This document shows positions 16,950 through 32,800 of a stretch of 64,000 nt of DNA, in pieces (position 1 is the first letter of the stretch; each line of letters opens with the position of its first letter). Source of the stretch: a virus; the IMG/VR virus record IMGVR_UViG_3300049734_000491, positions 1-64,000 of that record; one strand, given 5' to 3'. A model generated the notes under the pieces. That model was not told the DNA's origin. It worked only from the letters and a program-made list of their open reading frames with translations, and did no database searches. The position numbers and the translations under genes are program-made.

Positions 16950-17182
16950 CGCACGGCCTCGCAGTTCTGGAGGGCGTGGAGGGCGGCCTGGAACGCACGG
17001 TCGGCCTTGAAGTAGGCCTCCTCGGTCTCCTCGGTCTCCTCGTCGGCTTCGATGATCTTCTCCTCGAGGATCCTCGCGTCGTGGAAGTCGATGGCTGCCT
17101 CGCCGAGATCGTCGAGCAGCTTCTCGAGCTCTCGCCGCTGGGCGAGCTGTTGGTTGGTCAGGTTGGGGAGCATGTCGCTCAT
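16946..17182 (-). CDS. Small acidic helical protein
   Basis: Promoter at 17215 plus RBS. Confidence 0.65.
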   Translation of the reverse strand: MSDMLPNLTNQQLAQRRELEKLLDDLGEAAIDFHDARILEEKIIEADEETEETEEAYFKADRAFQAALHALQNCEAVR

Positions 17183-17231
17183 GGTGGTTGCCTTTCGTGG
17201 TCGTTGTTGTGGTCAGTGTAGTTGATGGTTG

Positions 17232-17567
17232 CTAGCTTGTCAAATCGTCAAGCAGCACCCAGTGGTCGACGCCGGGGATCATGTTGAGTGTGCGGCCGCA
17301 GTCCCAGTCCACCCAGATCTGGGGGAGGGGCCCGTCCACCACGCCGGTCACGGTTCCCCGACTGCCGGCTGGGACCGGGTAGGGGTCGTCTGGCATGTCC
17401 ATGAGCTCGACCCGCATCCCGACCAGAATCGGTCGGTGGGTTCCGTTCTCGTTCTCCAGCTCGTCGTTCCCCGAGCAGCCGTCCCCCTCGGTCTGGTCGA
17501 CCCAGGCGGAGCCACCGTTGGTGAACTCGAGGTGGAGGATGTCGCCGCAGTAGGCACAGGCCGGCAT
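17232..17567 (-). CDS. DUF4314 domain protein
   Basis: GMRVELMDMPDDPYPVPAGSRGTV...IWVDWDCGRTLNMIPGVD. Confidence 0.8.
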   Translation of the reverse strand: MPACAYCGDILHLEFTNGGSAWVDQTEGDGCSGNDELENENGTHRPILVGMRVELMDMPDDPYPVPAGSRGTVTGVVDGPLPQIWVDWDCGRTLNMIPGVDHWVLLDDLTS

Positions 17568-17770
17568 CAGACGACCTCCACGGTTTCCATGAGGAAGGCG
17601 AGCAGCTCGTCGTAGCTCTTGCAGGCGAGCGCCTTCTTGGCGAACTCGTCGGCGTTGGCGGAGCCGTGGGCCCGCAGGATGGACTTGCGGACCACGCCGA
17701 TCAGAGCGAAGGCGTTGCCGTCGGTGCCGGTCAGCTTGACGGTGAGTCCGGGGTAGGTCGGCGTGCTCAT
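17567..17770 (-). CDS. Conserved small phage protein (DGNAF motif)
   Basis: VKLTGTDGNAFALIG...SYDELL. Confidence 0.7.
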   Translation of the reverse strand: MSTPTYPGLTVKLTGTDGNAFALIGVVRKSILRAHGSANADEFAKKALACKSYDELLAFLMETVEVV

Positions 17771-18084
17771 GCTCCCGCCTCCGCTTCGTAGTAGCCGATC
17801 TTGCGAGCGCCCGAACGGAGGGCGTCGAAGTCCAGGTCCTCGAACGCTGTGGGCGTGTCGAGAGCGTTCTCGATCGCATCGAACAGGTGGCCGACGCTCG
17901 CCACCGTGTCGGCGTCGTAGTCGAAGTCGCTCAGCATGAAGATCAGCGTGTTGCACTGGTCCTCATCGGTTTGGTCGAACTCGTTGTCGCCGGTCTCGTC
18001 GCGGACGTCCAGCACGTTCTCGTACCGGGCTTCCATGACCCAGAGCAGGGCGCCCTTCTCGGCGTCGGTCAGGTCGATCTTCAT
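17767..18084 (-). CDS. Acidic hypothetical protein
   Basis: Promoter at 18115 plus RBS. Confidence 0.65.
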   Translation of the reverse strand: MKIDLTDAEKGALLWVMEARYENVLDVRDETGDNEFDQTDEDQCNTLIFMLSDFDYDADTVASVGHLFDAIENALDTPTAFEDLDFDALRSGARKIGYYEAEAGA

Positions 18085-18139
18085 GTCGTGGTCCTTTCGT
18101 TGTTGTTGTGGTACATGATAGTGGATGGTTGCTAGCTCG

Positions 18140-18568
18140 TCAAGTTGAGGCCGGCCGGCGGATGGAGATGTTGTGCCACCACTCAGCCGGGATCGGCATG
18201 GTCGTGATCCACCAGTGGCGGGCGAGCTCAAGCCCTCCCCCTGTCGAGATCATGGTGTCGACCCACCAGTCCTGGAAGTCAGGATGGCAGCGGGCCCACA
18301 CCAGCCATGGAGCGACGATGGTGGGATGGATGGAGCTATCTGGGATGTCCACGGTGATCTCCACCTCGGACTTGTCGGCGAACCCTCCCCCGAGCCCGTG
18401 GAGGTCCTCCTCCCCCGGCTCGAGCGGTCGGTCCAGGAACCAGACAACTTCGTGGGGATGGGGCGGATCCCAGCTCACATTGGATTCGGTCAGCGTCAGC
18501 CAGCCGGCGTCCTCGATCATGGGCAGATGAAACCCTGATGTATAATGGTACAAACGCTTTGGAATCAT
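18140..18568 (-). CDS. Hypothetical protein, possible ADP-ribosyltransferase-like fold
   Basis: LYHYTS...L..I...GWL...VVWF resembles the start of ART/Tpt1-like domains. Confidence 0.45.
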   Translation of the reverse strand: MIPKRLYHYTSGFHLPMIEDAGWLTLTESNVSWDPPHPHEVVWFLDRPLEPGEEDLHGLGGGFADKSEVEITVDIPDSSIHPTIVAPWLVWARCHPDFQDWWVDTMISTGGGLELARHWWITTMPIPAEWWHNISIRRPAST

Positions 18569-19044
18569 GGTTGTCCTTTCAGCCGTCGCTTCCGTTCACG
18601 CTCTGTTTGAGCACGACAGGCGCGACAGGCTCGATGTCCTTGTGTGTTGATGTAGGTGTTCTTCTCGTCGTAGGGGTGTCCCTGAGGGCAGTGCGTTTTG
18701 GTTCGGTTTCTTGCTCCCTTCGCTGTCCTAGTGGCTTCGGTGTCAGGGGAACGTCGGACGTTCTCCAAGTGAGTCACTGCTTCGAGATGTGATGGATTGC
18801 AACAAGTTCGGTTCTTGCAGAGGTGGTCGATCTCGTAGCTTGCTGGGATGGATTCCTTGAAGGCTTCGTAGGCCACTCGGTGGGAGTAGTCCTCCACTCC
18901 TCTACCGATGGTGTATCGGCCATAGCCCTGGCCGGCCGAGGCTCCGATCCAGAGCCAACAGCCAGTTTCGTTCGGCCGGACCTTCTCCCAGAACCGTTCA
19001 CTGAGGATGGGATGTCCGAACACAGGCTCACCGTCGACCCACAC
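18565..19044 (-). CDS. HNH endonuclease (paralog of 15394-15837)
   Basis: FGHPILSERFWEKV, IDHLCKNRTCCNPSHL, THCPQGHPYDEKNTY. Confidence 0.85.
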   Translation of the reverse strand: MWVDGEPVFGHPILSERFWEKVRPNETGCWLWIGASAGQGYGRYTIGRGVEDYSHRVAYEAFKESIPASYEIDHLCKNRTCCNPSHLEAVTHLENVRRSPDTEATRTAKGARNRTKTHCPQGHPYDEKNTYINTQGHRACRACRAQTERERKRRLKGQP

Positions 19045-19050
19045 TGTTGG

Positions 19051-19398
19051 TCAGTCCCAGTCGAGGTCATCGGGAAGCTGGTACGGCTTGTGGTCGATGA
19101 CGATGTAGGCCACCGAGCCGGTCTCGGACATGGAGTCCCAGCCGTTGGTGTAGGCGTGGAAGATCTGGCCGTACTTGTCGGCGGTGACTTCCAGCATTTC
19201 CATCCGGGCGTAGCCCGGCTCGGCGAACTCGGCCATCCCCTTGAAGGTGGCTGGGATCTTGGGCAGAGCCTCGGCGGCCTCCCGCAGCTTGATCTCGGCG
19301 AGATCCAACTCAGCCAGCGCATCCTGGAAGGCTCGCTGTCCGGGTGTCATCTCTTCCCACCGCTTGCTCGCGGCGCTGAGGTACTGGTCGTCGGTCAT
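19051..19398 (-). CDS. Hypothetical protein
   Basis: Promoter at 19429 plus RBS. Confidence 0.65.
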   Translation of the reverse strand: MTDDQYLSAASKRWEEMTPGQRAFQDALAELDLAEIKLREAAEALPKIPATFKGMAEFAEPGYARMEMLEVTADKYGQIFHAYTNGWDSMSETGSVAYIVIDHKPYQLPDDLDWD

Positions 19399-19453
19399 GG
19401 TCGTTGTCCTTTCGTCGTTGTCGTGGTCAGTATAGGGGATCGCTCCCCCTTTG

Positions 19454-19921
19454 TCAAGCCAGCGGGTTGTAGCCCGGAGGCGGGTCCTGTTGCAGATGGT
19501 TGTAGTGGTCGATCAGGTCTTGGACCTGCAGCCCTCGGTTGAGTTCGACCGTGCCGGACTCGACCAGTTCGGCGAGTTCGTCGATGTCGATGGAGAGTTC
19601 CTCTCGGTCCTCAGCCAAGTTCCGGTGCCAGGGGATGTACGGTCGATCGCAGCGGGTCGCCCCCACCCGACCGAGGCCGGGCACGGTGACGGGCTTGTAG
19701 CCACGGGTCGTCATCAGACGACCCTGCTCACCGGCCTTCTCGAAGCAGTCATCGCAGATGTTGAATGCGATGAAGCTCAGGTCGAGCGAGTCGTAGACCC
19801 GGCTCCCGTAGTTGCCCGAGGTCTGGCACATGACGCCGTCCCGAGGTTGGGCCTCGTACTCGTCCATGTCCCGGAGCAGGGTCCGGCCACAGATGAGGCA
19901 GGGGAAGGACTCGCTGGTCAT
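19454..19921 (-). CDS. Zn-finger hypothetical protein
   Basis: CLICG...GNYGSRVYD...ICDDC. Confidence 0.65.
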   Translation of the reverse strand: MTSESFPCLICGRTLLRDMDEYEAQPRDGVMCQTSGNYGSRVYDSLDLSFIAFNICDDCFEKAGEQGRLMTTRGYKPVTVPGLGRVGATRCDRPYIPWHRNLAEDREELSIDIDELAELVESGTVELNRGLQVQDLIDHYNHLQQDPPPGYNPLA

Positions 19922-20076
19922 GCGTTCTCCTCGATGATCTCGACGCCCCAGATCTCGATCGCGGGCTCGTATCGAAGAGTTACGGCTTTGATGAAGAGTT
20001 CCTGAGCCTCAGCTTCGGTGACGTGGTCGTCGTCGTAGCGGAGGGTCATCTTCACGTTGAAGATGGTGTGTTCCAC
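19918..20076 (-). CDS. 52-aa hypothetical protein (below the ORF-track cutoff)
   Basis: Promoter at 20110, RBS, GTG start, ATGA overlap with the next gene. Confidence 0.55.
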   Translation of the reverse strand: MEHTIFNVKMTLRYDDDHVTEAEAQELFIKAVTLRYEPAIEIWGVEIIEENA

Positions 20077-20163
20077 CGTGGTTGCCTTTCGTTGTGGTTG
20101 ATGTTGTGTAGTATAGGGGATGGACCCGCCACTGGCAAGTCCATCCCCCAGGAGGAGCTCAGC

Positions 20164-20346
20164 TCACATCATCCCGAGGATGAGGAGCGGCGAGCGGTAG
20201 CCGTGAGGGCACCGGCCGTCGGGCTCGACGGGGCAGCCGTCGAACGCCTCGGTGACGCCCTCCCACATGATCTCCTCGAGATCCTCGAAGTCGAGTTGGT
20301 TGACCCAGCGCCGCTCTTCGGCCTGCTGATCGGGAGTGAGTGGCAT
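20164..20346 (-). CDS. Small Cys/His protein
   Basis: DGCPVEPDGRCPHG motif; promoter at 20381. Confidence 0.65.
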   Translation of the reverse strand: MPLTPDQQAEERRWVNQLDFEDLEEIMWEGVTEAFDGCPVEPDGRCPHGYRSPLLILGMM

Positions 20347-20429
20347 GGTGGTTGTCCTTTCGTCGTGGTTGTTGTAGAGCAGTATAGGGGATGGACTGCA
20401 CGGTGTCCAATCCATCCCCTAGAGGGAGC

Positions 20430-20861
20430 TCAGTTGTTGAGGTGCTGGAAGGCCGCGCGCAGGGCCAGCGCCTCGCTCGTCTCGAGCAGGGTGATGATCT
20501 CCTGGATCTCGGCGAGCAGTCGCGGGCCCTCGTGGTCGGAGAACCCGATGGTGTTCCCCATGTCGTCGGTGCGAGCGAGCACCACCGGACCGTTCACGCG
20601 GAACCCAGCCATGATGCTGGCGATCGGGTTCGGCTGATCGGCGTAGGTGTAGAGGTACTCGTCGTCGTGCCAGAGGTCGGTCCCGTCGGCGAGCTGGTGG
20701 ATCTGGAGCGTGCCGGGGATGATCGACTTGAGGAAGTCGTAGGTGGTGTCGCCACCCTCCACGTCGATCGTGGCCGGCGAGACCTGCCAGCCAAGCTCGG
20801 TGGTGCCGTCCTCGAGGAACGTGACGGAGGGGAGCATGACGATGACTCGTGGGTTGGTCAT
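20430..20861 (-). CDS. DUF3846-like protein
   Basis: LWHDDEYL...PNPIAS...VNGPVVL; promoter at 20898. Confidence 0.55.
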   Translation of the reverse strand: MTNPRVIVMLPSVTFLEDGTTELGWQVSPATIDVEGGDTTYDFLKSIIPGTLQIHQLADGTDLWHDDEYLYTYADQPNPIASIMAGFRVNGPVVLARTDDMGNTIGFSDHEGPRLLAEIQEIITLLETSEALALRAAFQHLNN

Positions 20862-20932
20862 TGTGGTTGCCTTTCGTTGTCGTGGTTGTTGTCGGTCAGT
20901 GTAGTTGATGGATGGTTGACTGTCAAGTTGGC

Positions 20933-21181
20933 TCAGTCGTCCATCGGGGCGCAGTGGGCGAACAGGCGGTCGGTCAGCATCAGGTGGTCTCGGTACCGGA
21001 TCTCGCAGGCCTTGCAGTCCTCGAGCGTGCACTCGTCGCCCCATCCTGGGAGGGACCAGTTGTCGGCGACGTCGTAGACGTCATCGTCCGAGAGGCCCTC
21101 GGGCTTCCGGTCGAAAGCGAGCATGAGCTCGGTGGAAGCGAGGATGGCTCGGTCGCGGTAGGTGAGCATGAAGAGTGGCAT
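20933..21181 (-). CDS. Hypothetical protein
   Basis: Promoter at 21222. Confidence 0.55.
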   Translation of the reverse strand: MPLFMLTYRDRAILASTELMLAFDRKPEGLSDDDVYDVADNWSLPGWGDECTLEDCKACEIRYRDHLMLTDRLFAHCAPMDD

Positions 21182-21252
21182 GGTGGTCGTGGTCTCCGGT
21201 GTGGTTGTGGTTGTTGTGGTCAGTGTAGTTGGTGGTTCTCGGTCTGTCAAGT

Positions 21253-21537
21253 TCAGCTGATGAGCTCGATGAGACTGGTGGAGCCGGCCTCACGGGTCAT
21301 GGCCGGGATCTGTTCGGCGATGTAGAAGAGCTGGCTGGCAGTCATGTCCAGCGCCTCCGCGATCCGGTCCATTGTCTTGAGGGCCGGAGCCTTCTGGCCC
21401 TTCTCAATCTCGGAGATGTACGGGTAGCTGATGCCAGCCGCCGTGCCCAGCTCTCGCCGGCTGATGTCCAGGAGGACTCGGCGGAGCACGATTGCCTTAC
21501 CGAGGTTCTTGCGGAAGTGGAACTCTGTCTCGTTCAT
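21253..21537 (-). CDS. XRE-family HTH transcriptional regulator (leaderless)
   Basis: ISRRELGTAAGISYPYISEIEKGQKAPAL..IAEAL; ATG 7 nt after the -10 box. Confidence 0.85.
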   Translation of the reverse strand: MNETEFHFRKNLGKAIVLRRVLLDISRRELGTAAGISYPYISEIEKGQKAPALKTMDRIAEALDMTASQLFYIAEQIPAMTREAGSTSLIELIS

Positions 21538-21569
21538 GGAGGTCAGCATAGTCCTTGGTTCGTGGTCTG

Positions 21570-21806
21570 TCAAGTTGAGCGGTCCAGGTGGCCGCAGGCC
21601 TTGCAGCGCCGGCGATGTGGCACGCCGTCCCATGCATGGCACCCGCACCCGCAGGTGGCAGCACGGCGGTCGGCCACGATGCAGCCGGTGGGCCCGATCA
21701 TGTGGCTGGCATCGGGGACCACCTCAAACCATCGGAGGGCCCGCTCGAGGTCGGTGTTGCGCCGCAGGGTGCCGTGGTTGGTCACGAGGTAGTAATACCC
21801 CTTCAC
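21570..21806 (-). CDS. Small Cys-rich protein
   Basis: CGCGCH...CKACGH; GTGA overlap with the upstream gene. Confidence 0.5.
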   Translation of the reverse strand: MKGYYYLVTNHGTLRRNTDLERALRWFEVVPDASHMIGPTGCIVADRRAATCGCGCHAWDGVPHRRRCKACGHLDRST

Positions 21807-22000
21807 TGTGACACTGCCTTCCGAGTCTCTCGTTCGGCGTCCGCCGCGAGCTCGTAGGCGTGGTTGATGGCAGCCAGCATCCGGCGGCTCATCTCGCGGT
21901 CACCGTCGTTGTCCTCTGCGTTCTCGAGGTAGTCCATCCAGGCAACCTTGAGCTGCTCGGCGAGGATGAGGTACTTCATCTGGCGCTCTTCGGCGGTCAT
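21803..22000 (-). CDS. Hypothetical protein
   Basis: Promoter at 22034 plus RBS. Confidence 0.6.
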   Translation of the reverse strand: MTAEERQMKYLILAEQLKVAWMDYLENAEDNDGDREMSRRMLAAINHAYELAADAERETRKAVSQ

Positions 22001-22083
22001 GGTCGTGGTCCTTCTGTTGTCGTCGTTGTGGTCAGTATAGGGGATGGACCTGCCACGCTGCAAGTCCATCCCCTAGATCGTCC

Positions 22084-22413
22084 TCAGACGATGGAGGGGC
22101 TGTTGGGCCGCACCGACCGGAAGGTCGTGGTGGTCCCGATGGCCGCCCAGACCTCGGGGAACTCGTCCTGCACCTTCTTGGCCGACACGTTCGGACGGGT
22201 CGACTCGACGATGGTGACGACGACGGCACCGCCGTGGACACCGGCCGTGGCGCCAACGGAGTCCATGCGAGCGAGCAGTGCGCCGCGGATCTCCTTCTGG
22301 CGATCCTCGAGCTCCGCCAGCGTGCGGCGGATCTGCGCCAACTCGCTCACGGCGAGGAGCTCGGCGCCGGTCAGTTCCACCGTGGTGGGGAGAGGGGTCG
22401 GGGTCATGGTCAT
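22084..22413 (-). CDS. Hypothetical coiled-coil protein (paralog of 10455-10853)
   Basis: Promoter at 22456; KKVQDEFPEVWAA motif. Confidence 0.65.
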   Translation of the reverse strand: MTMTPTPLPTTVELTGAELLAVSELAQIRRTLAELEDRQKEIRGALLARMDSVGATAGVHGGAVVVTIVESTRPNVSAKKVQDEFPEVWAAIGTTTTFRSVRPNSPSIV

Positions 22414-22513
22414 GGCACTGTCCTTTCGTTGTGGTTGTCGTGGTTGATGTTGTTCAGTATAGGCGGTGGACTTGTGGAGGTCAAGTCCACCGCCCATAGA
22501 TCTGTGGCCGGCC

Positions 22514-22684
22514 TCAGGCCCGCCCGGCCCGACGGGCCTCGCGGCGAGCGGCGAGTCGATCGGCGGCGGCACCGCGGCGAGCGATGGCTCGGACCTCGGA
22601 GAGCCGGTCCCGACGGACCTCGTCCATCGGGGTGGTGAGAAGGTCGAGGGTGAAGGTGACGGTGTGATCGCTCTCGTAGAACAT
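22514..22684 (-). CDS. Small hypothetical protein
   Basis: Promoter at 22728 plus RBS. Confidence 0.55.
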   Translation of the reverse strand: MFYESDHTVTFTLDLLTTPMDEVRRDRLSEVRAIARRGAAADRLAARREARRAGRA

Positions 22685-22776
22685 GGTGGTCGTGGTCTGC
22701 CTTTCGTGGTTGTCGTTGTTGGAGGTCAGTATAGGGGATGGATTGGTGCCTGTCCAATCCATCCCCAGGAGCTCTC

Positions 22777-22935
22777 TCAGAGAGCTGCCACCGCCCGTTC
22801 GATGCGCCGCTCCTGCCACGCGATGGCTTCGGCCAGCCGCTGCGGGTCGGGGGAGTCACCGCGCATCTGGATGGTGACGAGGTTGAAGTGGCACTGGAGC
22901 GCGTGCACCAGCTCGTCGCGAGGGTCGTACTTCAT
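22777..22935 (-). CDS. Small hypothetical protein
   Basis: Promoter at 22970 plus RBS. Confidence 0.6.
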   Translation of the reverse strand: MKYDPRDELVHALQCHFNLVTIQMRGDSPDPQRLAEAIAWQERRIERAVAAL

Positions 22936-23018
22936 GGTCGTGGTCCTTTCGTCGTCGTTGTTGTGGTACATGATAGGGGATGATTCTCGATCGGCGCCAA
23001 TCGGATTCTGAGGAGCTC

Positions 23019-23177
23019 TCAGCCTGCGATGGCTACCTTGAGAAGCCTGTCGTACAGGTACCACCGGCTCCGGGGTACGGAGCGAGCCAACTCGTTCTCA
23101 GCCCGCTCGAGGTTGGTGAACCGCTGGCCGCGGCTGGAAGGGTTCTCTCTGTCCTTGATTTCGTATCGCAGCTTCAT
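23019..23177 (-). CDS. 52-aa leaderless protein (below the ORF-track cutoff)
   Basis: ATG 7 nt after TATCAT; MKLRYEIKDRENP... Confidence 0.55.
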   Translation of the reverse strand: MKLRYEIKDRENPSSRGQRFTNLERAENELARSVPRSRWYLYDRLLKVAIAG

Positions 23178-23268
23178 GGGGATCATGATAGTTCATGGTT
23201 TGTAGTCAATGCAAGTCGGCGGCCGGCCTGGGTGAGCTGGAGCTCAGAAATGCCGGCTGGATATTTTT

Positions 23269-23332
23269 GGGCAGGCTTCGGCCCTCCTCTCAGAGTCCTC
23301 ACTCCCTCTGAGCAGTTGGTCATCGTGGATCG
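23269..23332 (-). ncRNA. Candidate structured RNA, family A, copy 2
   Basis: Starts a few nt after the predicted +1 of the promoter at 23345; covaries with copy 1. Confidence 0.6.
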
Positions 23333-23399
23333 CTGTATGGGTACAGTATAGGGGATTATTTGTAAGCTGTCCAGCCGACCCCTGAGGGCCGGCCTAGGA

Positions 23400-23639
23400 T
23401 CAGCCTCGAGGTCCGGTCGTCATGATCTCCCCGGTGTGGACCAGCTCGGAGAGCTCAGCCATGATCCGGAACCTGATGACTCGGCGAGCCGCCACATCGA
23501 GGCGGTCCGCGAAGTCGGTTGTGTCCGCCGACGGGAACTCCGCGCAGAACTTGGCGAAGCCCTCGGTCATGTTCTTGAGGATCTGTTCGGCCTCGGCCAG
23601 GTCCTGGCGAGCCTCGAGCAGATTGAGCGTTGTGTTCAC
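23400..23639 (-). CDS. Hypothetical protein
   Basis: Promoter at 23676 plus RBS. Confidence 0.6.
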   Translation of the reverse strand: MNTTLNLLEARQDLAEAEQILKNMTEGFAKFCAEFPSADTTDFADRLDVAARRVIRFRIMAELSELVHTGEIMTTGPRG

Positions 23640-23727
23640 TGTCTGCCTTTCGTGGTTGTCGTGGTTGATGAGGTCAGTATAGGGGATATTTCTGAGACTG
23701 TCAACTCTAGCATGAGCTCGAGCTCAG

Positions 23728-23798
23728 AGCTGCCGGCGGGAGTCGAACCCGCGTCCCGGGCTTTGCAGGCCCGTGCCTCACCGCTCGGCCACGGCAGC
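23728..23798 (-). tRNA. trnC: tRNA-Cys (GCA), CCA not encoded
   Basis: Acceptor GCTGCCG/CGGCAGC, anticodon arm CGGGC-CTGCAAA-GCCCG, T-arm GCGGG-TTCGACT-CCCGC, discriminator U73. Confidence 0.93.
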
Positions 23799-23803
23799 GT
23801 GTT

Positions 23804-23950
23804 TCAGTAGGAACCCTTGCGGCACGCCTTGCGGGAGGCTTCCTTGCGCCGGTCCTTGAAGGTGTGCGCCCGCTGGGAGATGCGCTGCATCCGAACCTCC
23901 AGCCGGGGCGTCTCGAACTTCGTCGACTTCTTGGGCTTGCTCTTTGCCAT
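23804..23950 (-). CDS. Small very basic leaderless protein, probably co-transcribed with tRNA-Cys
   Basis: MAKSKPKK...FKDRRKEASRKACRKGSY; ATG 6 nt after TATACT. Confidence 0.65.
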   Translation of the reverse strand: MAKSKPKKSTKFETPRLEVRMQRISQRAHTFKDRRKEASRKACRKGSY

Positions 23951-24008
23951 AAGGGTAGTATAGGGGATGGCTCTGATAGTGTGCAAGTCGAGGCCGGCCT
24001 GGCTGAGC

Positions 24009-24293
24009 TCAGTCCCGGCTCAGCCGGCTCCGCAGCCTCGGCGACTGCTCGAGCCAGTCGGGGCTCTCGTTCAGCGGGCAGGGGTGGAAGTCGGCCCGAA
24101 CCAGCTCGCGCCCGAGCCGGAGCTCCACACAACCGATGCAGAGCATCCCGTCGCCGATGCGAGGGCCGATGCCAGTGAGGTCCCAGACCTCGTCCTCGAG
24201 CTGGTAGTACTCACCGATGTCCAGGGTGTTCACGCCGCAGTCAGCACACTCGAACTCGACGAGGGGGGCATTTTGTGGGTATGGATTGGTCAT
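24009..24293 (-). CDS. Zn-finger conserved phage protein
   Basis: CADCG...EYY...VW...GMLCIGCVELRLGREL..DF. Confidence 0.7.
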   Translation of the reverse strand: MTNPYPQNAPLVEFECADCGVNTLDIGEYYQLEDEVWDLTGIGPRIGDGMLCIGCVELRLGRELVRADFHPCPLNESPDWLEQSPRLRSRLSRD

Positions 24294-24323
24294 GATTTCC
24301 TTTGTTGATTACCGTATCCGATC

Positions 24324-24755
24324 ATGGAGTCGTGGCCAGAGAGTGTTCGGCTGTCGACCAGAGAGTGCTGGTCATGGCCCGTAGAGACTGCTTACCGTCG
24401 AGATGGCCGTGCCACAGCTAGTAAGCAGTACATCTATCGGCTGCTCTACTTGATGTTGGTTGATCCGGATTTGTCAGATGACTTGGTATTGCACCATTTG
24501 TGTGGCAATGCGTGGTGTGTAAATCCTTGGCATCTCATTACCAAGACTCCAGCCGAACATGCTGCGGAGCACTTGGCTGAGCGGAACGCTCGCCGGCGGA
24601 AGCACACCTGTAAGAACGGCCACGACATGGACGATCCTGGGAATGTGGGCACCTTCACTCGAATGAAGGATGGAGAGGCTCGTGAGGAGCGTTACTGCCG
24701 AGCCTGCCGAGCTCTTTGGAAGAAGCGTCGGCAGGCTCGTCAGCGTGGTCTATGA
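24324..24755 (+). CDS. HNH endonuclease inserted against the array orientation
   Basis: CWSW, LHHLCGNAWCVNPWHL, CKNGH, CRAC; lower GC. Confidence 0.8.
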   Translation: MESWPESVRLSTRECWSWPVETAYRRDGRATASKQYIYRLLYLMLVDPDLSDDLVLHHLCGNAWCVNPWHLITKTPAEHAAEHLAERNARRRKHTCKNGHDMDDPGNVGTFTRMKDGEAREERYCRACRALWKKRRQARQRGL

Positions 24756-25322
24756 GACCTTCCCGCGCTTTGCGAGGATGGCCTCAGCTTCGGCCATGGT
24801 GGGGTAATGCCACCCGTTGTTCTTGCTGCACACCGGCCCGTAGCCAGCGGCGAGCGAGCGGCGGTCCTCAAGGTCGGCGAAGCAGTTGATGCACTGCATG
24901 TACTCCCAGCCCCACAGGCGGGCCTGCTCGTCGCTCATCAGCGTGTCGGCCGTGAGGGTGCGGAGGCCCTTCTTGCCTCGGTAGAGCCAGTGCCAGTCGC
25001 CATCCTCGGCCACGAGCTCCTTGCCCACGATCTGGCCGGTGTTGCGGGTGGCGATGACTCGGATGATCGCACCGTCGAGCGGGCGGACGTGGAGGCCCTT
25101 GGGCGGGTCCTCGCCACGGTGGGCGGCGGGCAGGCGGGTGGCGGCCTTGGCCAGCACCTTCGCGTGCATGGACCGTGCGGCCGCTTCCTGCTTCGGCGAG
25201 AGCCGGTGAGTGTCGAGGTACTGACGGGAGAGGCTCTGGGCGAAATCCGACCAGGTCTGGTCGTGCAGCCAGTCGGCGAGCTCGTCGAGGGTGATCGTGG
25301 TCTCTGTCGTGGTCTCGTTCAT
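24750..25322 (-). CDS. DUF6011-like Zn-finger protein (leaderless)
   Basis: CINCFADLEDRRSLAAGYGPVC; FAQSL..Q..LSPKQ. Confidence 0.7.
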   Translation of the reverse strand: MNETTTETTITLDELADWLHDQTWSDFAQSLSRQYLDTHRLSPKQEAAARSMHAKVLAKAATRLPAAHRGEDPPKGLHVRPLDGAIIRVIATRNTGQIVGKELVAEDGDWHWLYRGKKGLRTLTADTLMSDEQARLWGWEYMQCINCFADLEDRRSLAAGYGPVCSKNNGWHYPTMAEAEAILAKRGKVS

Positions 25323-25376
25323 GAGGGTCAGTGTAGTCCTTGGTTCGTCGTCTGTCAAGTCAGCCTGTCCACCAGC

Positions 25377-25559
25377 TCAGAAGCAGGTGTCACAGGTGCA
25401 GTGCGAGCGCCGACCGGACTGGCAGCGGGTGCTGGCATCGTGGCTGGGGCCGAACGGAACGCGGCCGGTTTCGTTGGCCTTGGCTCGATCACGGTCACAG
25501 GTGGGGCACTCACCCTCGGGGGCGAAGACTCGGTTGAGGTAGTCCTGGTCGGGATGCAC
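25377..25559 (-). CDS. Small Cys/His-rich protein
   Basis: CPTC...PSHDASTRCQSG..HCTCDTCF. Confidence 0.65.
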   Translation of the reverse strand: MHPDQDYLNRVFAPEGECPTCDRDRAKANETGRVPFGPSHDASTRCQSGRRSHCTCDTCF

Positions 25560-25648
25560 GGTGGTCCTTTCGTCGTCGTTGTTGGAGGTCAGCATAGGGG
25601 ATATTTCCCGTACTGTCAACTCGGGGGCCGGCCAGGCCGGGCCCGAGC

Positions 25649-25801
25649 TCAGGAGCTCGAGCCCAACCGAGCCTCGGCCTCGGCGCGGGCGTCGGCGCAA
25701 GCCTGCCGAATCTTCTCGGCGAACTCGGCGAACCGATCCCAGTCGGCCTCGGTGCAGTTCTCCCAGAAGGCCGTTCTCTTGTCGGTGGCGGGCATGTCCA
25801 T
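25649..25801 (-). CDS. 50-aa hypothetical protein
   Basis: Promoter at 25840 plus GAAAGGA RBS. Confidence 0.5.
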   Translation of the reverse strand: MDMPATDKRTAFWENCTEADWDRFAEFAEKIRQACADARAEAEARLGSSS

Positions 25802-25909
25802 CGTCCGGTCCTTTCGTCGGTGTCGTGGTCAGTGAGGTCAGTATAGGTCATGGCTATCTGACCGTCAAGTTCGGTTTGAGCTCCAGCTCAGCGAGCTGGT
25901 CCTCGAGCC

Positions 25910-26341
25910 AGAGAGGCGGTGGGAACCCCGGGCCGGGACTGCTTCGGCGCTACTTCCCCGGCAGGCGTGCACACCTCCGGTTACCTCACGACTCGGTGGG
26001 CCCGTTCTCCCCGTTCGCTCCCCTTACCGTTCGGGCTCCACCACCTTCATGAGTCGAGGATTTTCGACCGTAGGGCGTTTCACAGCCGTACTTGCGAGGG
26101 CACCTCCGGGGTCCCGGAGTTCTCATCGCTTCTCTGTGCGTTGGCCGTGGGGAGATTTCTCTCCCCGTGGCCGGCGAGTTCAGCGGGAATGGCTCTGTGG
26201 CTCGCGATGCCACTCGGCTCCCGGAGGACTTTCGGGCGTGTCCCCACTCACCCTCGGACTATCAATCTGGCGACCACCTCCGTTCGGGGCACTCCTACCG
26301 CCGTTTCGACCGTCGTGCGGAGTGCTTTGCTGTTGTTGTTG
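25910..26341 (-). ncRNA. Candidate large (about 430 nt) structured non-coding RNA
   Basis: Perfect promoter at 26348-26376; no RBS-led ORF; long-range closing helix (26293-26302 with 25915-25924, extended by CCCCG/CGGGG); internal hairpins. Confidence 0.6.
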
Positions 26342-26372
26342 TAGAGCAGTATAGGGGATGGTTTCCCCGTTG

Positions 26373-26525
26373 TCAACTCGGCGGTCGGTGACCCTCGAGC
26401 TTCCTCAGGAAGCCGAGTCTCCGACTCCGCCGTGCGTCGGCGCTGCCGACCGTCCAGGTCTGTCGGACGGCCTCAGCCAACTGGCGCCGGAGCTCGGCGC
26501 GGTCGGCGTTGTAGTCGGCGCTCAT
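26373..26525 (-). CDS. Small basic protein
   Basis: ATGA-coupled to the upstream gene. Confidence 0.45.
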   Translation of the reverse strand: MSADYNADRAELRRQLAEAVRQTWTVGSADARRSRRLGFLRKLEGHRPPS

Positions 26526-26695
26526 GCCGACCGCCGTCGGTACTCGGCCAGCGTGATCGTGCCGCGCTCGTCGTCCTCGAGGACCGTGGCTCGGTCCCAG
26601 AAGCGGGACGTGCCGGTGTAGGTCCCAGCGGGATCGCCGGTGTTCCGACGACCGGTCCGACCGGCGAGGCGGGCGGTGGGTTCGTTGTTGTTCAT
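26522..26695 (-). CDS. Small leaderless protein
   Basis: ATG 7 nt after TATCAT at 26703. Confidence 0.5.
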   Translation of the reverse strand: MNNNEPTARLAGRTGRRNTGDPAGTYTGTSRFWDRATVLEDDERGTITLAEYRRRSA

Positions 26696-26857
26696 GTCGG
26701 TCATGATAGGGGATGTTTTTGGGATGGCGCAAATCGTCGGCCAGCCCTGGATGAGCTCGAACACAGCAAGTCGTTTGTGGTATCTTGACGTAGTGGTATC
26801 CATGCACTATCATGTACTACATCAAGAGCGGGGAGGGTCTCCGCAGGAAAGGGCAGG

Positions 26858-26995
26858 ATGTACGAGGACAGTCACCTCGAGGCGGACTACGAGGATCGTT
26901 GGATCGCTGACACCGACGTCGATGACTCCGATTGGGAGGACGACTACTCGGACCTGGCCTACGAAGGCAGCGAGCACGCTGAGTTCGACTGGTGA
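26858..26995 (+). CDS. 45-aa extremely acidic protein
   Basis: Own promoter TTGACG-17-TATCAT (26785-26813), purine-rich RBS, 19/45 D+E, followed by a GAAA hairpin at 27001-27025. Confidence 0.7.
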   Translation: MYEDSHLEADYEDRWIADTDVDDSDWEDDYSDLAYEGSEHAEFDW

Positions 26996-27087
26996 GGTGA
27001 GGGGGCCGGCCGAAAGGCCGGCTCCGCCGCGTCCCGGGACACCTCGAGCGGAGCTCGAGCTGCCGGCGGCGCGTTCGGGAATACCGC

Positions 27088-27160
27088 GGATATTTTTCCG
27101 CAGGTTTCGGCCCTCGCCTCCCGGTATCCCTCGCCGGCGGGTTTCGTCATCTCGGATCGC
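27088..27160 (-). ncRNA. Candidate structured RNA, family A, copy 3 (divergent)
   Basis: GCGATCC..GATGAC...GAGGGCCGAA.CCTGC..AAAAATATCC shared with copy 2; directly after the promoter at 27170. Confidence 0.5.
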
Positions 27161-27217
27161 TTGAATGTCAGTATAGGGGATGGACTTGAACTTGTCAAGC
27201 CCATCCCCGGAGGCAGC

Positions 27218-27439
27218 TCAGGGGAGCTCGTCCCAGGCCGCGAGCAGGGCGTCCACGGGGTACTCGACTCGGAAGTCGCCGACCACGATGTTCTCGCAGG
27301 TGGTCACTCGGACGATGTGGAAGCCGTCCTCGTAACCCACGAACGCTGCGTAGATGCTCACGAAGGTGGGGTCGGCGGGGACGTACTCCGTGGCCGAGAG
27401 GGGCAGGTGGGCGATTTCTTCGGCGTGGTCGATTGCCAT
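27218..27439 (-). CDS. Small acidic protein
   Basis: First gene of the leftward array. Confidence 0.55.
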   Translation of the reverse strand: MAIDHAEEIAHLPLSATEYVPADPTFVSIYAAFVGYEDGFHIVRVTTCENIVVGDFRVEYPVDALLAAWDELP

Positions 27440-27467
27440 CGGTCTCTTTCTTGGTCGGTGGTTAGGC

Positions 27468-27604
27468 CACCAAGGAGCTCAGGTCTGCAGCCCCGAGCGC
27501 CGTCCGAAGGAGAGCGGTGCAAACCACCGGCTTACGCACGACTCACCAGACACGATGCTGGAGGGGTGACAACCGTTTGCACTTCGGTCGGTTTTTCCTT
27601 GGTG
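27468..27604 (-). ncRNA. Structured 5' leader or ncRNA (about 135 nt)
   Basis: Starts near +1 of the promoter at 27610; closing stem CACCAAGGA/TCCTTGGTG; inner stem GTGCAAAC/GTTTGCAC. Confidence 0.5.
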
Positions 27605-27729
27605 AGAGCAGTATAGGGGATAGTTTTGAGGCTGTCAAGTCGGCAGGAGCTCTGACTCAACTAGGGGGGAATTTGTCGAGTTCGGGGCCATTCCGCCGTG
27701 AATTGGCTGGGATCGCTTATGCTTCCGCT

Positions 27730-28092
27730 GTGCCGTCCACAGTCCAGAGAGCTCTGCACCTCGTGCCGAAGCCAGAGCCAGAGCCGGCCCTCGAGCCCGT
27801 GAACCTGCGGGATGTGATGGAGTTGGCTGTCGGAGCTCTGGCTGTGTCCCGGATAGCTCGCCTCGTGGTTGACGACGAGATCTCGAAGCCCATCAGAGAA
27901 GCTGTCTCGAAGACCTGGCCGGGGAGCCCGCTCGAGACCTTGATCGGGTGCCGGGCCTGTGTTTCGGTGTGGGGAGCCGGCTTGGTTGTCGCCAACCTCG
28001 TTCCCCGGAAGGTCCGGCTGCTCCTAGCTCTGTCGGAGGTCGCCGTGATGGTGGAGCGGATGATCGATCGCCCGTCCACGAGGGAGTGGTGA
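27730..28092 (+). CDS. DUF1360-like membrane protein (leaderless), first gene of the head operon
   Basis: LAVSRIARLVVDDEI..PIRE...LIGCRACVSVW; TATGCT 6 nt before the GTG. Confidence 0.7.
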   Translation: MPSTVQRALHLVPKPEPEPALEPVNLRDVMELAVGALAVSRIARLVVDDEISKPIREAVSKTWPGSPLETLIGCRACVSVWGAGLVVANLVPRKVRLLLALSEVAVMVERMIDRPSTREW

Positions 28093-28093
28093 C

Positions 28094-29869
28094 GTGGGGA
28101 GATTCTTCCCAGACGAGGAGGAGCTCGAGCTGGTTCCCCGGGCCAACGGCGGCCAGCCGGCACCGGTCCTCGAGCCGAAGCCGGCTCAGGAGCAGCCCAG
28201 TCGGCGATTCCTTGAGGTCTCGAGGCGCCTCGAGTCGGTTGAGGCACTCCTGGCTGATGGTTGGGTGCCGGAGCACCTCAGACCGCCGCCGGCGAACGTT
28301 CCCCGGGCCTTCAACGCCTCGGCCGAGCGAATTTTTGCCGGCTCGAGCTCGGAACGGGTCGACAAACGAGAGCCGTCGGCCTGGCAGACCGCCGCCTGGC
28401 AGTTCGTGGACGCGATCGGCGAGGTGAAGTTCGCCAGTTCGGTCCTCGGCTCGATCCTCAGCCGAGTTCGGCTCTACGCCGGCGTCGTCGACGACATCCA
28501 GCGGAGCCCGGTGTCGGTGACGGTGTTCCTCGAGGAGTTGGATCCCGCAGCCGGCATTACCACGGGGGATGTGACCGCAGAGGCCTTGCGGTACGCGGAC
28601 GAGATCGTGTCCGACATCCGGGAGCAGGCGTACGGCGGCACCAGCACGCTGATGCGGAACATGGCCGTCAACATCTGGGTGGCGGGCGAGTTCTACCTGA
28701 TCCGGGACAACAAGTGGCGGGTCGCCTCGGTGTCCGAGCTGACCAAGGGCACCGGCAAGGACGCCAACTTCGAGCTGATCACCTCGAGGGGAGGCAAGAC
28801 GCCGAGGAAGCCGATCCCGGCTGACGCCTTCGTGGCCAGGATCTGGCGCAACCACTCGAGATGGTCCGGCGAGGCTGACTCCTCGATGCTGGGAGTTCTC
28901 GACCAATGTGAGGAGTTGGTTCTGCTCGAGCAGGCCAAGCGGGTCATCACTCGAAGCCGGCTGAACGCCGGAGCCTTGTTCGTCCCAGATGGTGTCGGCA
29001 CGGTCGACCTCGAGAAGTCGCTCTTCGAGGCAGCGAACGGGCCGATCCGGGACGAGTCGGCCGCCTCGACGATCGTGCCTCTCCTTCTCCAGGGGCCGGC
29101 TGAGCTGGGCAAGGAGATCAAGCTCATCGACCTGAGCCGGCGGGTGGACGAGAACGTCCTCGAGCAGGAGTCCCGGGTCATCGACCGGATGTTGTCCGGG
29201 CTCGACATCCCGAAGGAGTTCGTGACTGGGCTGTCCGGGGTGAAATTCGCCAACGCCGTCTCGATCGACGACGAGCTCTTCAGATCGCATGTGGAACCAC
29301 TGGCGCTACTGATCGTGGACAGCTTGACCCAGGTCGTGCTTCGGCCCTCGATGCGGGCCCGGGGAATCCCGGAAGAGGTCATCAACCAGTGCGTGGTCTG
29401 GTACGACCCGTCCACCGTGATCTCGAGGCCGGACAAGTCCCAGGCGGCCAACGACGGCTTCGACCGGAAGATCTTGTCTGCGAAGGCCTGGCGTTCAGCT
29501 CGAGGCTTCACCGAGTTCGACGCCCCGGACGAGGACGAGCTCATCCGCCGGCTCGCCCTCGAGAAGGCGATGATCCCGCCGGAGATGGCGACCGTGCTGG
29601 TCGAATCGTTGAACCCGCCGTTCTTCGCAGCTCAGCGGGCACATCAGCAGGAGTTGGCCGGGATGCCAGACGACATCAGCCAACTCCTCGAGGGTGGCAC
29701 CATGCCCAGCAATCCCGGGGAAAATCCTCCGCCGGCTCCGCCCGGGCCGCCGGGCCAGCCAGAGCCCGGGGATGAGATCCCGCCGGGCCGACCCGAGGCC
29801 AACCCGATGTTCCAGGGTGGGGAAATCCAGCCGGGCGGAGTCATGCCGCCCAGGCCGAGCAGAAGGTAG
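28094..29869 (+). CDS. Portal protein
   Basis: WQ..AWQF..IGEVKF, SRVRLYAG, RIWRNH...ADSSM, SRLNAGALFVP, VWYDPS; size and position fit actinophage portals. Confidence 0.8.
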   Translation: MGRFFPDEEELELVPRANGGQPAPVLEPKPAQEQPSRRFLEVSRRLESVEALLADGWVPEHLRPPPANVPRAFNASAERIFAGSSSERVDKREPSAWQTAAWQFVDAIGEVKFASSVLGSILSRVRLYAGVVDDIQRSPVSVTVFLEELDPAAGITTGDVTAEALRYADEIVSDIREQAYGGTSTLMRNMAVNIWVAGEFYLIRDNKWRVASVSELTKGTGKDANFELITSRGGKTPRKPIPADAFVARIWRNHSRWSGEADSSMLGVLDQCEELVLLEQAKRVITRSRLNAGALFVPDGVGTVDLEKSLFEAANGPIRDESAASTIVPLLLQGPAELGKEIKLIDLSRRVDENVLEQESRVIDRMLSGLDIPKEFVTGLSGVKFANAVSIDDELFRSHVEPLALLIVDSLTQVVLRPSMRARGIPEEVINQCVVWYDPSTVISRPDKSQAANDGFDRKILSAKAWRSARGFTEFDAPDEDELIRRLALEKAMIPPEMATVLVESLNPPFFAAQRAHQQELAGMPDDISQLLEGGTMPSNPGENPPPAPPGPPGQPEPGDEIPPGRPEANPMFQGGEIQPGGVMPPRPSRR

Positions 29870-29874
29870 GACCT

Positions 29875-32800
29875 GTGTTCACCACAGACGATCTGTACCA
29901 GAGGTGGCTGGATGAGCTCACCAGGCTCGACCGAGCTCCTGACCCAGTGATCCTGGCCGGGCTCGAGATGGTCGGCCGCCACCAGGGCATGGACATGTGC
30001 GACGAGCTCGAGACCCAGCAGCTCCTAGCTGACGATCCCGAGATCAAGGTCCTCGAGGCGAGCCGCATCAAAGATGGCTCGAGGGTCGAGTTCGAGCTGT
30101 GCGGCCAGGAGTTCAAGGGCATCGCCCGGGACTGGATGCGGAATCCGCTCGACCGCAACGATCCGCTCATCCAACTCGATGTGCACGGCACCACGATGCT
30201 GCTCCCGCAGTCCGACCTCGAGCTGAGCTACACAGGCCAGGAGCTCGGCGGTGAGCACGGCCAGACTCGTGAGCTCGATCCACGCCGGGGCGACATGACG
30301 ACCGACGTGTGGATCGTGGCTGAGAAATCCGGGGTTCTGAGCTCGGCCAACTACGGCTACCAGAAAGCTCTCCTCGAACAGTGGATCAGTTCGCTGGAGC
30401 GCCGGCTGCACCGGCTCGAGGAGTTCGAGTTCCAGGACGCCCAGCCAACTTTGGTCGCCGATGCCCTAGGTACCAGGCCGCTCGAGCGGGCGACCCGGGC
30501 CCGGGATGTGAAGCTCCTTGAGACGGCTCGAGACCTCCTGGCCAGCCAGGTTCTGAAGCGGTTCCTCGAGGACGGGCTTCTTTCAGCCGGCGGCCTTCAG
30601 TCCTTGGTGGCAGCTCGAAGGCCTCGTCTCAACATGCCTGATGTGCCGGGCGGCGGTGAGTTCTGGGATCCGGACCTGCATCCTCGTGACTCGAAGGGTC
30701 GCTTCATCGAGACCAACGGGATCGTGGAGTGGTTGGATCGCTTGGGCAACCGCCGCCGAGGTCGGGTCCTCGACATCGAGAAGAACCGAGGTGCCAGCCG
30801 AAATCGTGGCCTGAAGTCCAAGGTTCACATCCAGCCACTCGATCAGCGGGGCAACGCCATGGGGCGGCCCGAGGTCCACTGGCCGGCTGAGCTCACCGCC
30901 TCGAAACCGGTGAAGGCCGACCTCGAGGACCTGCTTCCAGGTCGGCGTGAGCGGATCGGGATGTTGCCTGAGGATGCTCGTGTTCGGCTTACTCCCGAAG
31001 GTCGAGGTCGGCTTCCTCAGGACTTCATCGACGAGGAGTTGTCGTCCAGTCCATTCGATCAGGACCAGGACATCTGGGGTGACGAAGCTCCTCAGCCGGG
31101 AATGGACCTCACACCCGAGCAGCTCAACGACCTCGAGCGAATCTTCGATGACGCCAACGGGGATGTGGTGACCCAGGCAGCTCAAGACCTCGAGGAGCCC
31201 AGGTCTCGCCGGCTCACCAGCGACTTCGATGAGCGTCCACCGATGACTCCGGAGAACTTCGAGGAGTGGAATCGGTATCTGGAGGAACGCCAGGCAGAGC
31301 TTCGTGCTCAGTCCGAGGACGTCGAAGGTCCGAAGATGACCCTCCCGCCGGAGATGAAGCCCCAGGTCGATGAGTTCATGAAGGACGCTGGCATCGTCCA
31401 GCAGATGGCGATGGACGACTTCGATCTGCCGGAGGACTACTTCGACGACTGGAAGAAGCCCGATCCAGATTTTGAGTTCGACCCGCAGTTCGATGTGCCG
31501 TACCCGGGCATCCTCCCGATACCGGGCGACCTCAATCCTGACCTCACGCCGCCAGGGCGGATCCCCGGGCGGCCCTACTTCCCGGACGAGAACATCATCC
31601 CCGGGCCGAGTGACGAGTTGCCGGAGTTCGAGGAGCCCGTCTACTCGATGACGATGAAGCAGATGCAGAAAGCTCTGCGCCGTCGTCAGGTCACCAGGGA
31701 GCAGTTCATCGCTTGGAATGACGCCCGCAAGGCATCGAAGCGGAACAAGAAGGGCAAGCCCATCCAGGGCTGGAGCCGGAACCCAGATGGCACGGAAGCC
31801 AGCTGGGAGGTCCCGGGCTTCATGCCGGGCCGGACCTACCAGGACAAGCCCGGAGCTCTCCGATCCTGGCTGGACAAGCGCCGAGGCCGGGACCAAGAAG
31901 GCGACCTCGAGCCACTCCAACTCATCGTCAACGATGACGGCAGCCTGAGCTTGAACCGGCCACTGACTCCCGAGGAGCGGGCCGACATGGAGGCCGCCTT
32001 CGAGGAGCAGAACATCCCAGCCCCGGACATCGACCCAGACGGCCGACTGGTCCCAGTGCCGGCTGAGCCAACTCCGGAGGCGGAGCCAGAGTCGGCAGCA
32101 CCTCCGCCGGCGCAGCCGGAGCTCCGTGCACCCGAAGCGCTGTCGCCCGAAGCCCAGGACCGTGTCGAGAACGAGCTCGATGCCTGGGAGGAGCGGATGA
32201 ACAACGCCGGGATGGAGGTCAGCAATGCCGACCTCGACCGGCACCGCAGGCGTCTCGAGGACCGAGAGCGCCGGCGGGCGGTAGGCCAGGGCGAGCAGAT
32301 CGTGGAGCAGGGGTCTCGAGAAGGTGACTGGGGACGACCGGCTCCTGGTGGCGAGCCGCTCTGGGTGCCACCCCAGGAGTGGGTCGAGGCCGAGCAAGAA
32401 CGACGTGGTCTTCGGGAGACCATCCTCTTCGACCCCGACCAAGCCAAGAAGTCCCAGGCGTTCTGGAGGAGCTACAACCACCCAGCCGGTTCCATCAAGT
32501 TCACCCCGCCGGCGGACCTCGACGAGATGGACCTCGACCGTCTCGAGGGTGAGATCGAGGATCTCCAGGAGGGACTCGACGACTTCGTCGAAGCTCGAGA
32601 CCGAGGTGATGTCGAGAATGCCCTTGCAGCTCTGAACAACGCCATCGAGTCTCGGGACAACATCCGTGCCCTGCGGGACGAGACCGAGAACATGCTCGAG
32701 GACACCTGGGACGACGGGGCCCTCGATGCGGACCTGGCCTGGATGGATGACGAGCGCAGCCAACTCGAGGCCGAGGTGGAGAAGATCCCAGACATCCGGC

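Follow-up and report, generated by a model that had tools for sequence, protein, structure and literature searches.

This work concerns the first 64,000 bases (hereafter the window, the whole stretch of DNA that was analysed) of the virus record IMGVR_UViG_3300049734_000491, which is 127,992 bases long, is rated 95% complete and has a guanine-plus-cytosine (GC) content of ~64%, and within it a candidate RNA gene on the minus strand between positions 26341 and 25910. A preliminary description, made by eye from the letters alone, had proposed that a strong promoter here drives a single, highly structured non-coding RNA of ~430 nucleotides (nt). The promoter is present as described, a sigma-70-type TTGACA-17-TATACT at 26376-26348 that agrees with the consensus at 11 of 12 positions and has a predicted transcription start near 26341, and the CAA-rich start of the transcript is present as well. 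Downstream of it lie a 5′ leader of ~205 nt (26341-26136), with no BLASTN similarity to any locus that we fetched, and a conserved core (26135-25910). A promoter-driven structured non-coding RNA is borne out by our analysis, whereas its size and architecture are not: only the 3′ 213-226 nt are conserved, and these possess a closing helix of their own, P1. In our judgment the segment 26135-25910 is likely to be a stable non-coding RNA of ~215-226 nt, and to represent a previously uncatalogued RNA family of large uncultured phages.

Relatives of the conserved core

The closest relative, locus L025, was reached by a metagenome scan with a neighbouring DUF6011-like protein (window 25358-24750). 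Its flanking protein is 56% identical to that of the window, and in the syntenic upstream stretch the DNA matches at 71.5% over 144 nt (E 5.6e-11) and at 71.2% over 66 nt, in both cases in the 3′ half only. Blocks common to the window and L025 were turned into search patterns. Pattern scans of viral contigs yielded L054-L056 and, in a later round that returned 19 stretches (12 members and 7 chance or coding matches), a low-GC clade of eight contigs together with L065; and a scan returning 102 stretches left, after a motif filter, a single new member, L136. Two matches came from 185,579 species genomes, one of them a member (L165) and the other a coding coincidence (L164); another scan gave 10 stretches, none new, and L190 was added by a separate scan. 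Altogether the family comprises, in contigs of uncultured phages, 16 copies of full length and one half copy; they fall into nine lineages, with an element GC content of 52-66%, and each of the six phage records searched whole carries exactly one. The L165 contig sits in a metagenome-assembled genome labelled Candidatus Saccharibacteria and carries a DUF6011 gene, a sigma-70-type promoter and an RNA copy whose GC content is 65%; it appears to be a phage contig that was binned with that genome.

The covariance model R1 was built from six sequences, the window among them, so its match to the core (196.1 bits, E 5e-54, model positions 1-216 of 216, covering 26128-25916) is by construction; it is the only copy in the whole 128-kb record. 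Members outside model building match as well, with 125.2 (L025), 118.6 (L054), 102.9 (L136) and 109.8 bits (L190). Run over 68 sources, R1 produced 15 full-length matches of 102.9-220 bits and a partial one in L065. It gave nothing below E 0.036 in 90 unrelated loci from the 102-stretch scan (L073-L163 without L136), and no copy in the loci around relatives of 30% identity. A DNA search of five distant relatives of the flanking gene found nothing below E 0.37, and BLASTN of the stretch against 50,697 GenBank phage records found no match. In the literature, searched by topic and by motif strings in texts other than supplements, we found no description of this RNA family.

In the low-GC clade (L058, L059, L060 and L066) the DNA directly 3′ of P1 is wholly different between otherwise near-identical copies. 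For this reason we take the end of P1 to be a recombination boundary, with the RNA behaving as a mobile single-gene module.

The preliminary description had been unable to name a family, and the covariance models of Rfam 15 agree, since no relevant match was found. Over the whole window the only match at the gathering score is a transfer RNA (tRNA), tRNA-Cys; nothing relevant appears at E up to 10 in 25600-26600, and no family other than tRNA at E up to 1 in eight homologous loci. The models for GOLLD, ROOL, OLE, raiA, RNase P RNA, transfer-messenger RNA (tmRNA), group I and II introns, 6S and Y RNA were all unmatched, and ARAGORN detects no tmRNA in the window. Likenesses to 5S ribosomal RNA and RNase P seen by eye (GUGAAACGCC, GAAAGUCC) were dropped because neither had a model match. 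The link to tRNA genes, which had been drawn from GOLLD and ROOL, did not hold either: the tRNA-Cys lies at 23727-23798 (23728-23798 by Rfam), tRNA genes are near the element only in the window and L025, and among 17 related loci scanned only one has a tRNA.

Fold of the core and its palindromic tip loop

Comparison of the members shows a predicted fold that is a three-way junction, made of the long closing helix P1, an arm A with long invariant unpaired blocks, and an arm B with a hairpin at its tip. P1 of the window joins 26135-26113 to 25932-25910, 20 of the 23 positions being paired, and its 3′ strand contains TCCCACCGCC. Its sequence is different in every lineage yet stays complementary, and 11 of the 12 pairs counted change on both sides. 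After a bulged A comes P2, in which CC plus a triplet pairs with a triplet behind G(C/U)GAA; the window has CCCCG/CGGGG (26111-26107 with 26009-26013), and across the family the triplets run through CCG/CGG, GCU/GGC, CGU/GCG, CUG/CAG, ACU/GGU, GCA/UGC and GUA/UGC. In P2, 95% of alignment cells are paired, three of the five pairs change on both sides, and all three triplet positions covary. Arm A (26111-26009) continues from P2 into P2a (26102-26096 with 26016-26023), an invariant CGCC/GGUG helix and a variable hairpin, P3 (26069-26064 with 26052-26057); P2a and P3 are paired in 100% of cells. P3 separates the two invariant blocks, GTGAAACGCCCTACGG at 26083-26068 and ATGAAGGTGGTGGA at 26050-26037. 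The first reads GTGAA(A/G) followed by CGCCCTACG, and neither CGCCCTACG nor ATGAAGGTGGTGGA varies among the 10 aligned members. Arm B (26004-25934) has a base helix (26004-26001 with 25934-25938), a middle helix of which the consensus keeps 3 base pairs (bp) (80.6% paired), and a tip hairpin closed by CCGG (25980-25977) with CCGG (25961-25958). A longer middle helix, seen in L165 (11 of 12 bp) and L055 (8 bp), was not adopted since the window, L025 and L056 lack it, and the pairings GUACGGC/GCCCUAC and AGGUGCC/GGCACUU were rejected because they are not kept across members.

On a model-based alignment of 12 members RNAalifold predicts 49 pairs, 33 of them with compensatory change, and it is this prediction that adds P2a, the CGCC/GGUG helix, P3 and the three arm-B helices. 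Overall, 94.7% of 549 cells are paired, against 73.3 ± 1.2% in shuffles (none of 500 reaches the observed value); sliding the partners lowers the figure to 35-44%. Both sides change in 32 of the 47 pairs. In 11-12 of the 12 rows, three of the pairs are G.U; these would be mismatches if read on the opposite strand, so the fold is specific to the strand that the promoter transcribes.

The half copy, L065, consists of arm A alone, matching model positions 20-120, with a P2 of its own (UAC/GUA) as the closing helix. Arm A is probably the functional core and arm B a pairing handle. In L065, arm A occupies 7403-7535 (66773-66905 of record G010) and is followed by T-arm-like words (GGTTCGA), where ARAGORN finds no tRNA.

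All the motifs named in the preliminary description lie where it put them, including three copies of CGGAGGTG (26282, 26108, 25979) and two of CCCGAACGG (26288, 26035); it is the pairing assigned to some of them that has to be revised. The proposed pairing of the ends is real as complementarity, GGCGGTAGGA at 26302-26293 matching TCCCACCGCC at 25924-25915 at 9 of 10 positions, and CTCCGG (26119-26114) and CCGGAG (26109-26104) are likewise present. Both the end-to-end closing helix and the CUCCGG/CCGGAG hairpin are contradicted by the relatives, because their bases belong to P1 and P2, other helices that covary. The third proposed element, the hairpin at 26172-26143, is present, in the leader.

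Thermodynamic stability is of little help here. A folding-energy z-score against shuffles, put forward earlier as a check, would have failed: it is -1.90 for 446 nt, with 4 of 100 shuffles folding as well, and -1.76 for the 5′ part (11 of 200 shuffles as good). Since GC-rich shuffles themselves fold strongly, we have not weighed folding energy either way, and the case rests on covariation. The homolog search, also put forward earlier, did find relatives, and despite the weak folding energy the comparative data decide for a structured RNA.

Several observations nonetheless weigh against the reading of the core as a stable non-coding RNA. The core taken by itself folds no better than shuffles (z -0.55, 53 of 200 as good). 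The alignment was fitted to R1 and the structure was predicted from that same alignment, five of whose 12 rows are near-identical members of one clade, and the lineages number only nine. The copy in the window has three A.C mismatches in P1 and a poorly paired middle helix in arm B, where C faces C at 25990/25946. Its promoter is separated from P1 by 213 nt, which include the terminator-like hairpin 26172-26143, and the core is not immediately preceded by any promoter-like site; as the only promoter lies before the leader, the core is presumably read through it. Finally, contigs assembled from RNA libraries, taken up below, show neither strand, ends nor level, and could derive from carried-over DNA.

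Two A.C mismatches also occur in P1 of L025 (about 3212-3237 with 3455-3480), and two of those in the window stand at matching positions, left unrepaired in both.

The tip loop of arm B has a distinctive property. In the window it is a 15-nt loop containing the palindrome GTGCAC (25972-25967, minus strand), and in all 10 distinct members the loop, 12-17 nt long, holds a perfect palindrome of 6-8 nt, in six different sequences: GUGCAC (window), GGUGCACC, GUGGCCAC, GUGCGCAC, GCGGCCGC and GCGCGC. The tip stems beneath vary as well (CCGG/CCGG, CGAG/CUCG, GCUC/GAGC, GCGG/CCGU, CCCG/UGGG), and even the close relatives L058 and L059 differ by a CG-to-GC change at the palindrome centre. When the loops are shuffled, a palindrome as long as the observed one arises with P between 0.008 and 0.21; a stronger point than length is that symmetry persists through changes of sequence. 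Because adjacent bases cannot pair within one loop, the simplest partner for the palindrome is a second molecule. Computed loop-loop duplex energies, which are suggestive only, range from -9.2 to -29.3 kcal/mol. In work on OLE and GOLLD (PMC12286853), palindrome-preserving change is described for the kissing loops OLE L9.3 and GOLLD L21a, contacts confirmed by cryo-electron microscopy; the palindrome of the present family behaves in the way that account uses to recognise such contacts, covarying while staying a palindrome. On balance we favour the idea that two molecules would pair tip to tip through the arm-B palindrome, in a symmetric kissing dimer or a larger assembly. Against this, dimerisation is read from sequence alone, and the palindrome could instead be a DNA site for a dimeric protein.

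Leader, transcription and competing explanations

The DNA runs that contain the stretch are soil metagenomes, and traces of it are found in soil RNA libraries as well. Four soil metatranscriptome runs contain 5-6% of the sampled words of a 3-kb stretch. In three of them, from two samples and two studies, a single contig each matches this stretch (25947-26109, 25942-26110 and 25942-26108), 100% identical to the window and in every case inside the core, while the contig of the fourth falls within the DUF6011-like gene. The RNA contigs leave the leader, P1 and most neighbouring genes uncovered, though a lack of contig cover proves nothing. The ends of contigs from two studies nearly coincide, a few bases apart and just inside P1, which hints at processing only weakly, if at all.

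This hint has some bearing on the likeliest of the alternatives, namely that the element is a ribozyme or RNA-processing module with arm A as its catalytic core and arm B as a dimerisation handle. The invariant junction and internal-loop blocks, kept across copies of 52 to 66% GC, the survival of arm A by itself in L065, and contigs that stop just inside P1 at both ends are all consistent with such a module. We nevertheless regard it as unlikely, given that no Rfam ribozyme family matches, that neither a cleavage site nor a substrate can be named, and that tRNA genes are found near only the window and L025.

The leader is central to the next alternative, the original notion of one RNA of ~430 nt closed by pairing of 26302-26293 with 25924-25915 into a single ornate fold. 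In the window a single promoter does precede the whole stretch, the complementarity of the ends (9 of 10) is real, and the minimum-energy fold of the 446 nt contains long-range pairs. On the other side, the 3′ strand of the proposed helix belongs to P1 and covaries with 26135-26113 across all lineages; no homologue of the 5′ half could be detected; the z-score is only -1.90; and other members do without a 5′ domain, beginning 2-50 nt after a sigma-70-type promoter (L025, L055, L165 and L190; no promoter was found upstream of the core in L056). In L025 the counterpart of the leader is a separate transcription unit, with a promoter at 2979-3007, a length of ~165 nt and a hairpin at its end, and the conserved part has a promoter of its own at 3171-3199. 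The hairpin GGCC..GGGGAGA/UCUCCCC..GGCC that ends the window leader (26172-26143), terminator-like without a U run, stands at the same place as the L025 hairpin, which has a different stem sequence and is followed directly by the next promoter; L025 carries a ~29-nt promoter where the window has none. Together these points make a single 430-nt RNA quite improbable. The further idea that the leader is a diverged copy of the core was discarded, since 34 of 300 shuffles align as well.

A cis-acting leader, that is, a riboswitch or attenuator controlling the genes downstream, would suit the invariant unpaired blocks of arm A, which resemble a ligand pocket, and L136 and L165 do have a gene, preceded by a ribosome-binding site, that begins ~30-60 nt after the end of P1. 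The surroundings of the other copies speak otherwise: in the window and L025 a separate promoter stands between the RNA and the next gene, the DNA after P1 differs between near-identical low-GC copies, and no downstream gene family is common to the members. Moreover, P1 is a long, stable helix of 16-25 bp in which no alternative expression platform is visible. This explanation is very improbable.

The conserved palindrome and the long inverted repeats could also belong to an element that works as DNA, for instance an origin of replication, a packaging site or a palindrome bound by a protein, but the G.U pairs are invariant and tie the fold to one strand, the promoters are directed into the element, contigs from RNA libraries cover it, and the palindrome varies between lineages in a way that a protein site would not tolerate. 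Hence we give such an element very little credence.

As to coding capacity, the element is not protein-coding. None of the nine distinct members examined has a sense frame free of stops, four of them (L025, L054, L056 and L165) have stops in all six frames, and the two most conserved blocks are separated by 18, 20, 42, 46, 65 or 84 nt, values that cover 0, 1 and 2 modulo 3. In the window, stops occur in all three minus-strand frames of the stretch, and third-position GC (GC3) in the best frame of 25990-26350 is 0.70-0.75, against 0.85-0.97 in flanking genes. The earlier statement that no open reading frame (ORF) led by a ribosome-binding site exists here is correct as regards the weak coding signal and incorrect in the letter, because one weak ORF is present, a 55-residue frame (26247-26080) with GTG start and GAGGG 3 nt upstream, running from the leader into the core, for which the ORF at the same place in L025 offers no protein-level match. 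A gene encoding this ORF or the 141-residue plus-strand ORF 25919-26344 is next to impossible, even though GAGGG does precede the GTG and antisense ORFs that cluster by BLASTP exist in the window (141 residues), L055 (144 residues) and L136 (211 residues), since that clustering merely mirrors nucleotide conservation, every antisense frame is interrupted in L025, L054, L056 and L165, sense-frame stops and spacer shifts by non-multiples of three run through the family, GC3 is below that of real genes, and the 55-residue ORF is unmatched in the L025 counterpart. The antisense ORFs of L055 and L136 lie at 796-1230 and 2037-2672, respectively.

Genomic setting, known RNAs and a possible role

The promoter of the RNA is one of many. 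On the minus strand from ~14 to 27.6 kb (14000-27650) runs an array of near-consensus sigma-70-type TTGACA-17-TA(T/C)ACT promoters, with 18 sites in 20000-32000 where 1.1 ± 1.4 are expected; the array includes a promoter repeat family, D1, of 20 copies, to which the promoter at 26376-26348 belongs. As a rule a CAA-rich leader comes next after an array promoter, then a GAAAGG ribosome site, and then a small gene. L025 is organised alike, with 26 sites against 1.0 expected. Just 3′ of the core is a hairpin, CCAGCTC-GCT-GAGCTGG (25899-25883, minus strand), which has no U run and may be a 3′ end or terminator; it lies within a repeat family, D11, that precedes other array promoters as well. The next array promoter, TTGACG-17-TATACT (25868-25840), heads a gene of 50 residues (25801-25649). 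Upstream, the ORF 26813-26373 resolves into two coupled small genes, with a GC3 frame switch near 26520: the stop of a 93-residue gene overlaps the ATG of a 49-residue gene by one base (26522-26520), and the TGA stop of the latter sits within the -35 box TTGACA. A separate small repeat family behind array promoters (15141-15211, 23262-23332 and 27088-27120; the first two 83% identical over 71 nt) looks like another small structured RNA.

The proteins encoded around the RNA in several loci are mostly without a Pfam match. Those with one include DUF6011 (window, L165), ArdC-N and a polyvalent-type zincin (L056, L065), DUF932 (L060), a PD-(D/E)XK nuclease (L058) and an HATPase_c_3 protein (L165). 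Such domains are typical of the early or establishment regions of phages and plasmids. Among stop-to-stop ORFs of five RNA-bearing genomes, no family occurs in more than three except the antisense read-out of the RNA itself.

Known RNAs offer parallels in mechanism rather than in descent. The dimerisation initiation site of HIV-1 is a hairpin loop with a 6-nt palindrome, GCGCGC or GUGCAC, that pairs two RNAs loop to loop. GUGCAC is also the palindrome of the window; the likeness is one of mechanism only, the HIV-1 site being part of a retroviral genome and not a stand-alone phage RNA gene. The pRNA of phi29 is phage-encoded and transcribed from an early promoter, and it multimerises by loop-loop pairing of two different complementary loops into a portal-bound ring; its partner is the packaging ATPase, and it is restricted to phi29-like phages. 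It resembles the new RNA in size and in being phage-encoded, and differs in that the loop of the new family is self-complementary and that no protein family is shared by more than three of five genomes bearing it.

Closer in kind are ROOL, GOLLD and OLE, which one report presents as orphan structured RNAs with no known function or protein partner, ROOL and GOLLD being phage- or prophage-encoded, and as homo-oligomers held together partly by symmetric kissing loops (Kretsch et al. 2025, PMC12286853). There, as in the new family, loop palindromes change yet stay palindromes, and the new RNA would share with ROOL and GOLLD that it is RNA-only, is carried by phages and probably pairs with itself. 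It shares no sequence or model similarity with any of the three. At 213-281 nt and with a three-way junction it is also far from GOLLD, which is often > 800 nt; in contrast to GOLLD and ROOL, it is not generally near tRNA genes; and since the RNA appears to have a single self-complementary contact, a dimer and not a cage would be the simplest reading. Another parallel is the abundant, stable early non-coding RNA made from Pleft in cluster A mycobacteriophages (Dedrick et al. 2017, PMC5712189). That report describes a strongly promoted, stable early RNA with no conserved ORF in a GC-rich phage, which is what we propose here, earliness included; the Pleft RNA is unlike ours in lying at a genome end and in one phage cluster, with no conserved fold described (PMC5712189). 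No relation in sequence was found: the stretch has no BLASTN match in the phage GenBank collection.

What the RNA does can be addressed only from context, and here too there are points on the other side: no result bears directly on function, and the context consists mostly of proteins with no family match. A role in trans, directed at the host, is favoured because no phage protein travels with the RNA and because early or anti-restriction-type genes adjoin it in several phages; that it is an early role is favoured also by the early-type promoter array. According to this proposal the RNA would be made early from the strong promoter at 26376-26348, the core would be read through the 205-nt unconserved leader or cut out of it, and the product would work in trans, as a decoy for a host component or by sequestering it, during take-over or counter-defence. 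We offer an early, leader-derived, trans-acting RNA of this kind as a possibility, and a tentative one. A more ambitious version, and a doubtful one at present, would see a class of self-assembling phage RNAs in which an autonomous arm A supplies a binding pocket or catalytic centre and the kissing loop of arm B joins at least two copies into an assembly directed, early in infection, at a universal host component or a defence system.

Two practical points follow. For annotation, the antisense ORF (141 residues here) is an artefact of RNA conservation that may be called as a protein. For experiment, ROOL/GOLLD-type phage RNAs have recently been shown to build RNA-only assemblies, and the new family, at ~215 nt, is small enough for mutational and structural work and brings a testable dimer contact, a separable arm and evidence of expression in soil. 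That it occurs in phages with almost no genes in common suggests that selection acts on the RNA itself. If the self-assembling version were true, phages would possess in this family a factor for counter-defence or take-over made of RNA alone, which passes as a single-gene module from one phage to another, unrelated one.

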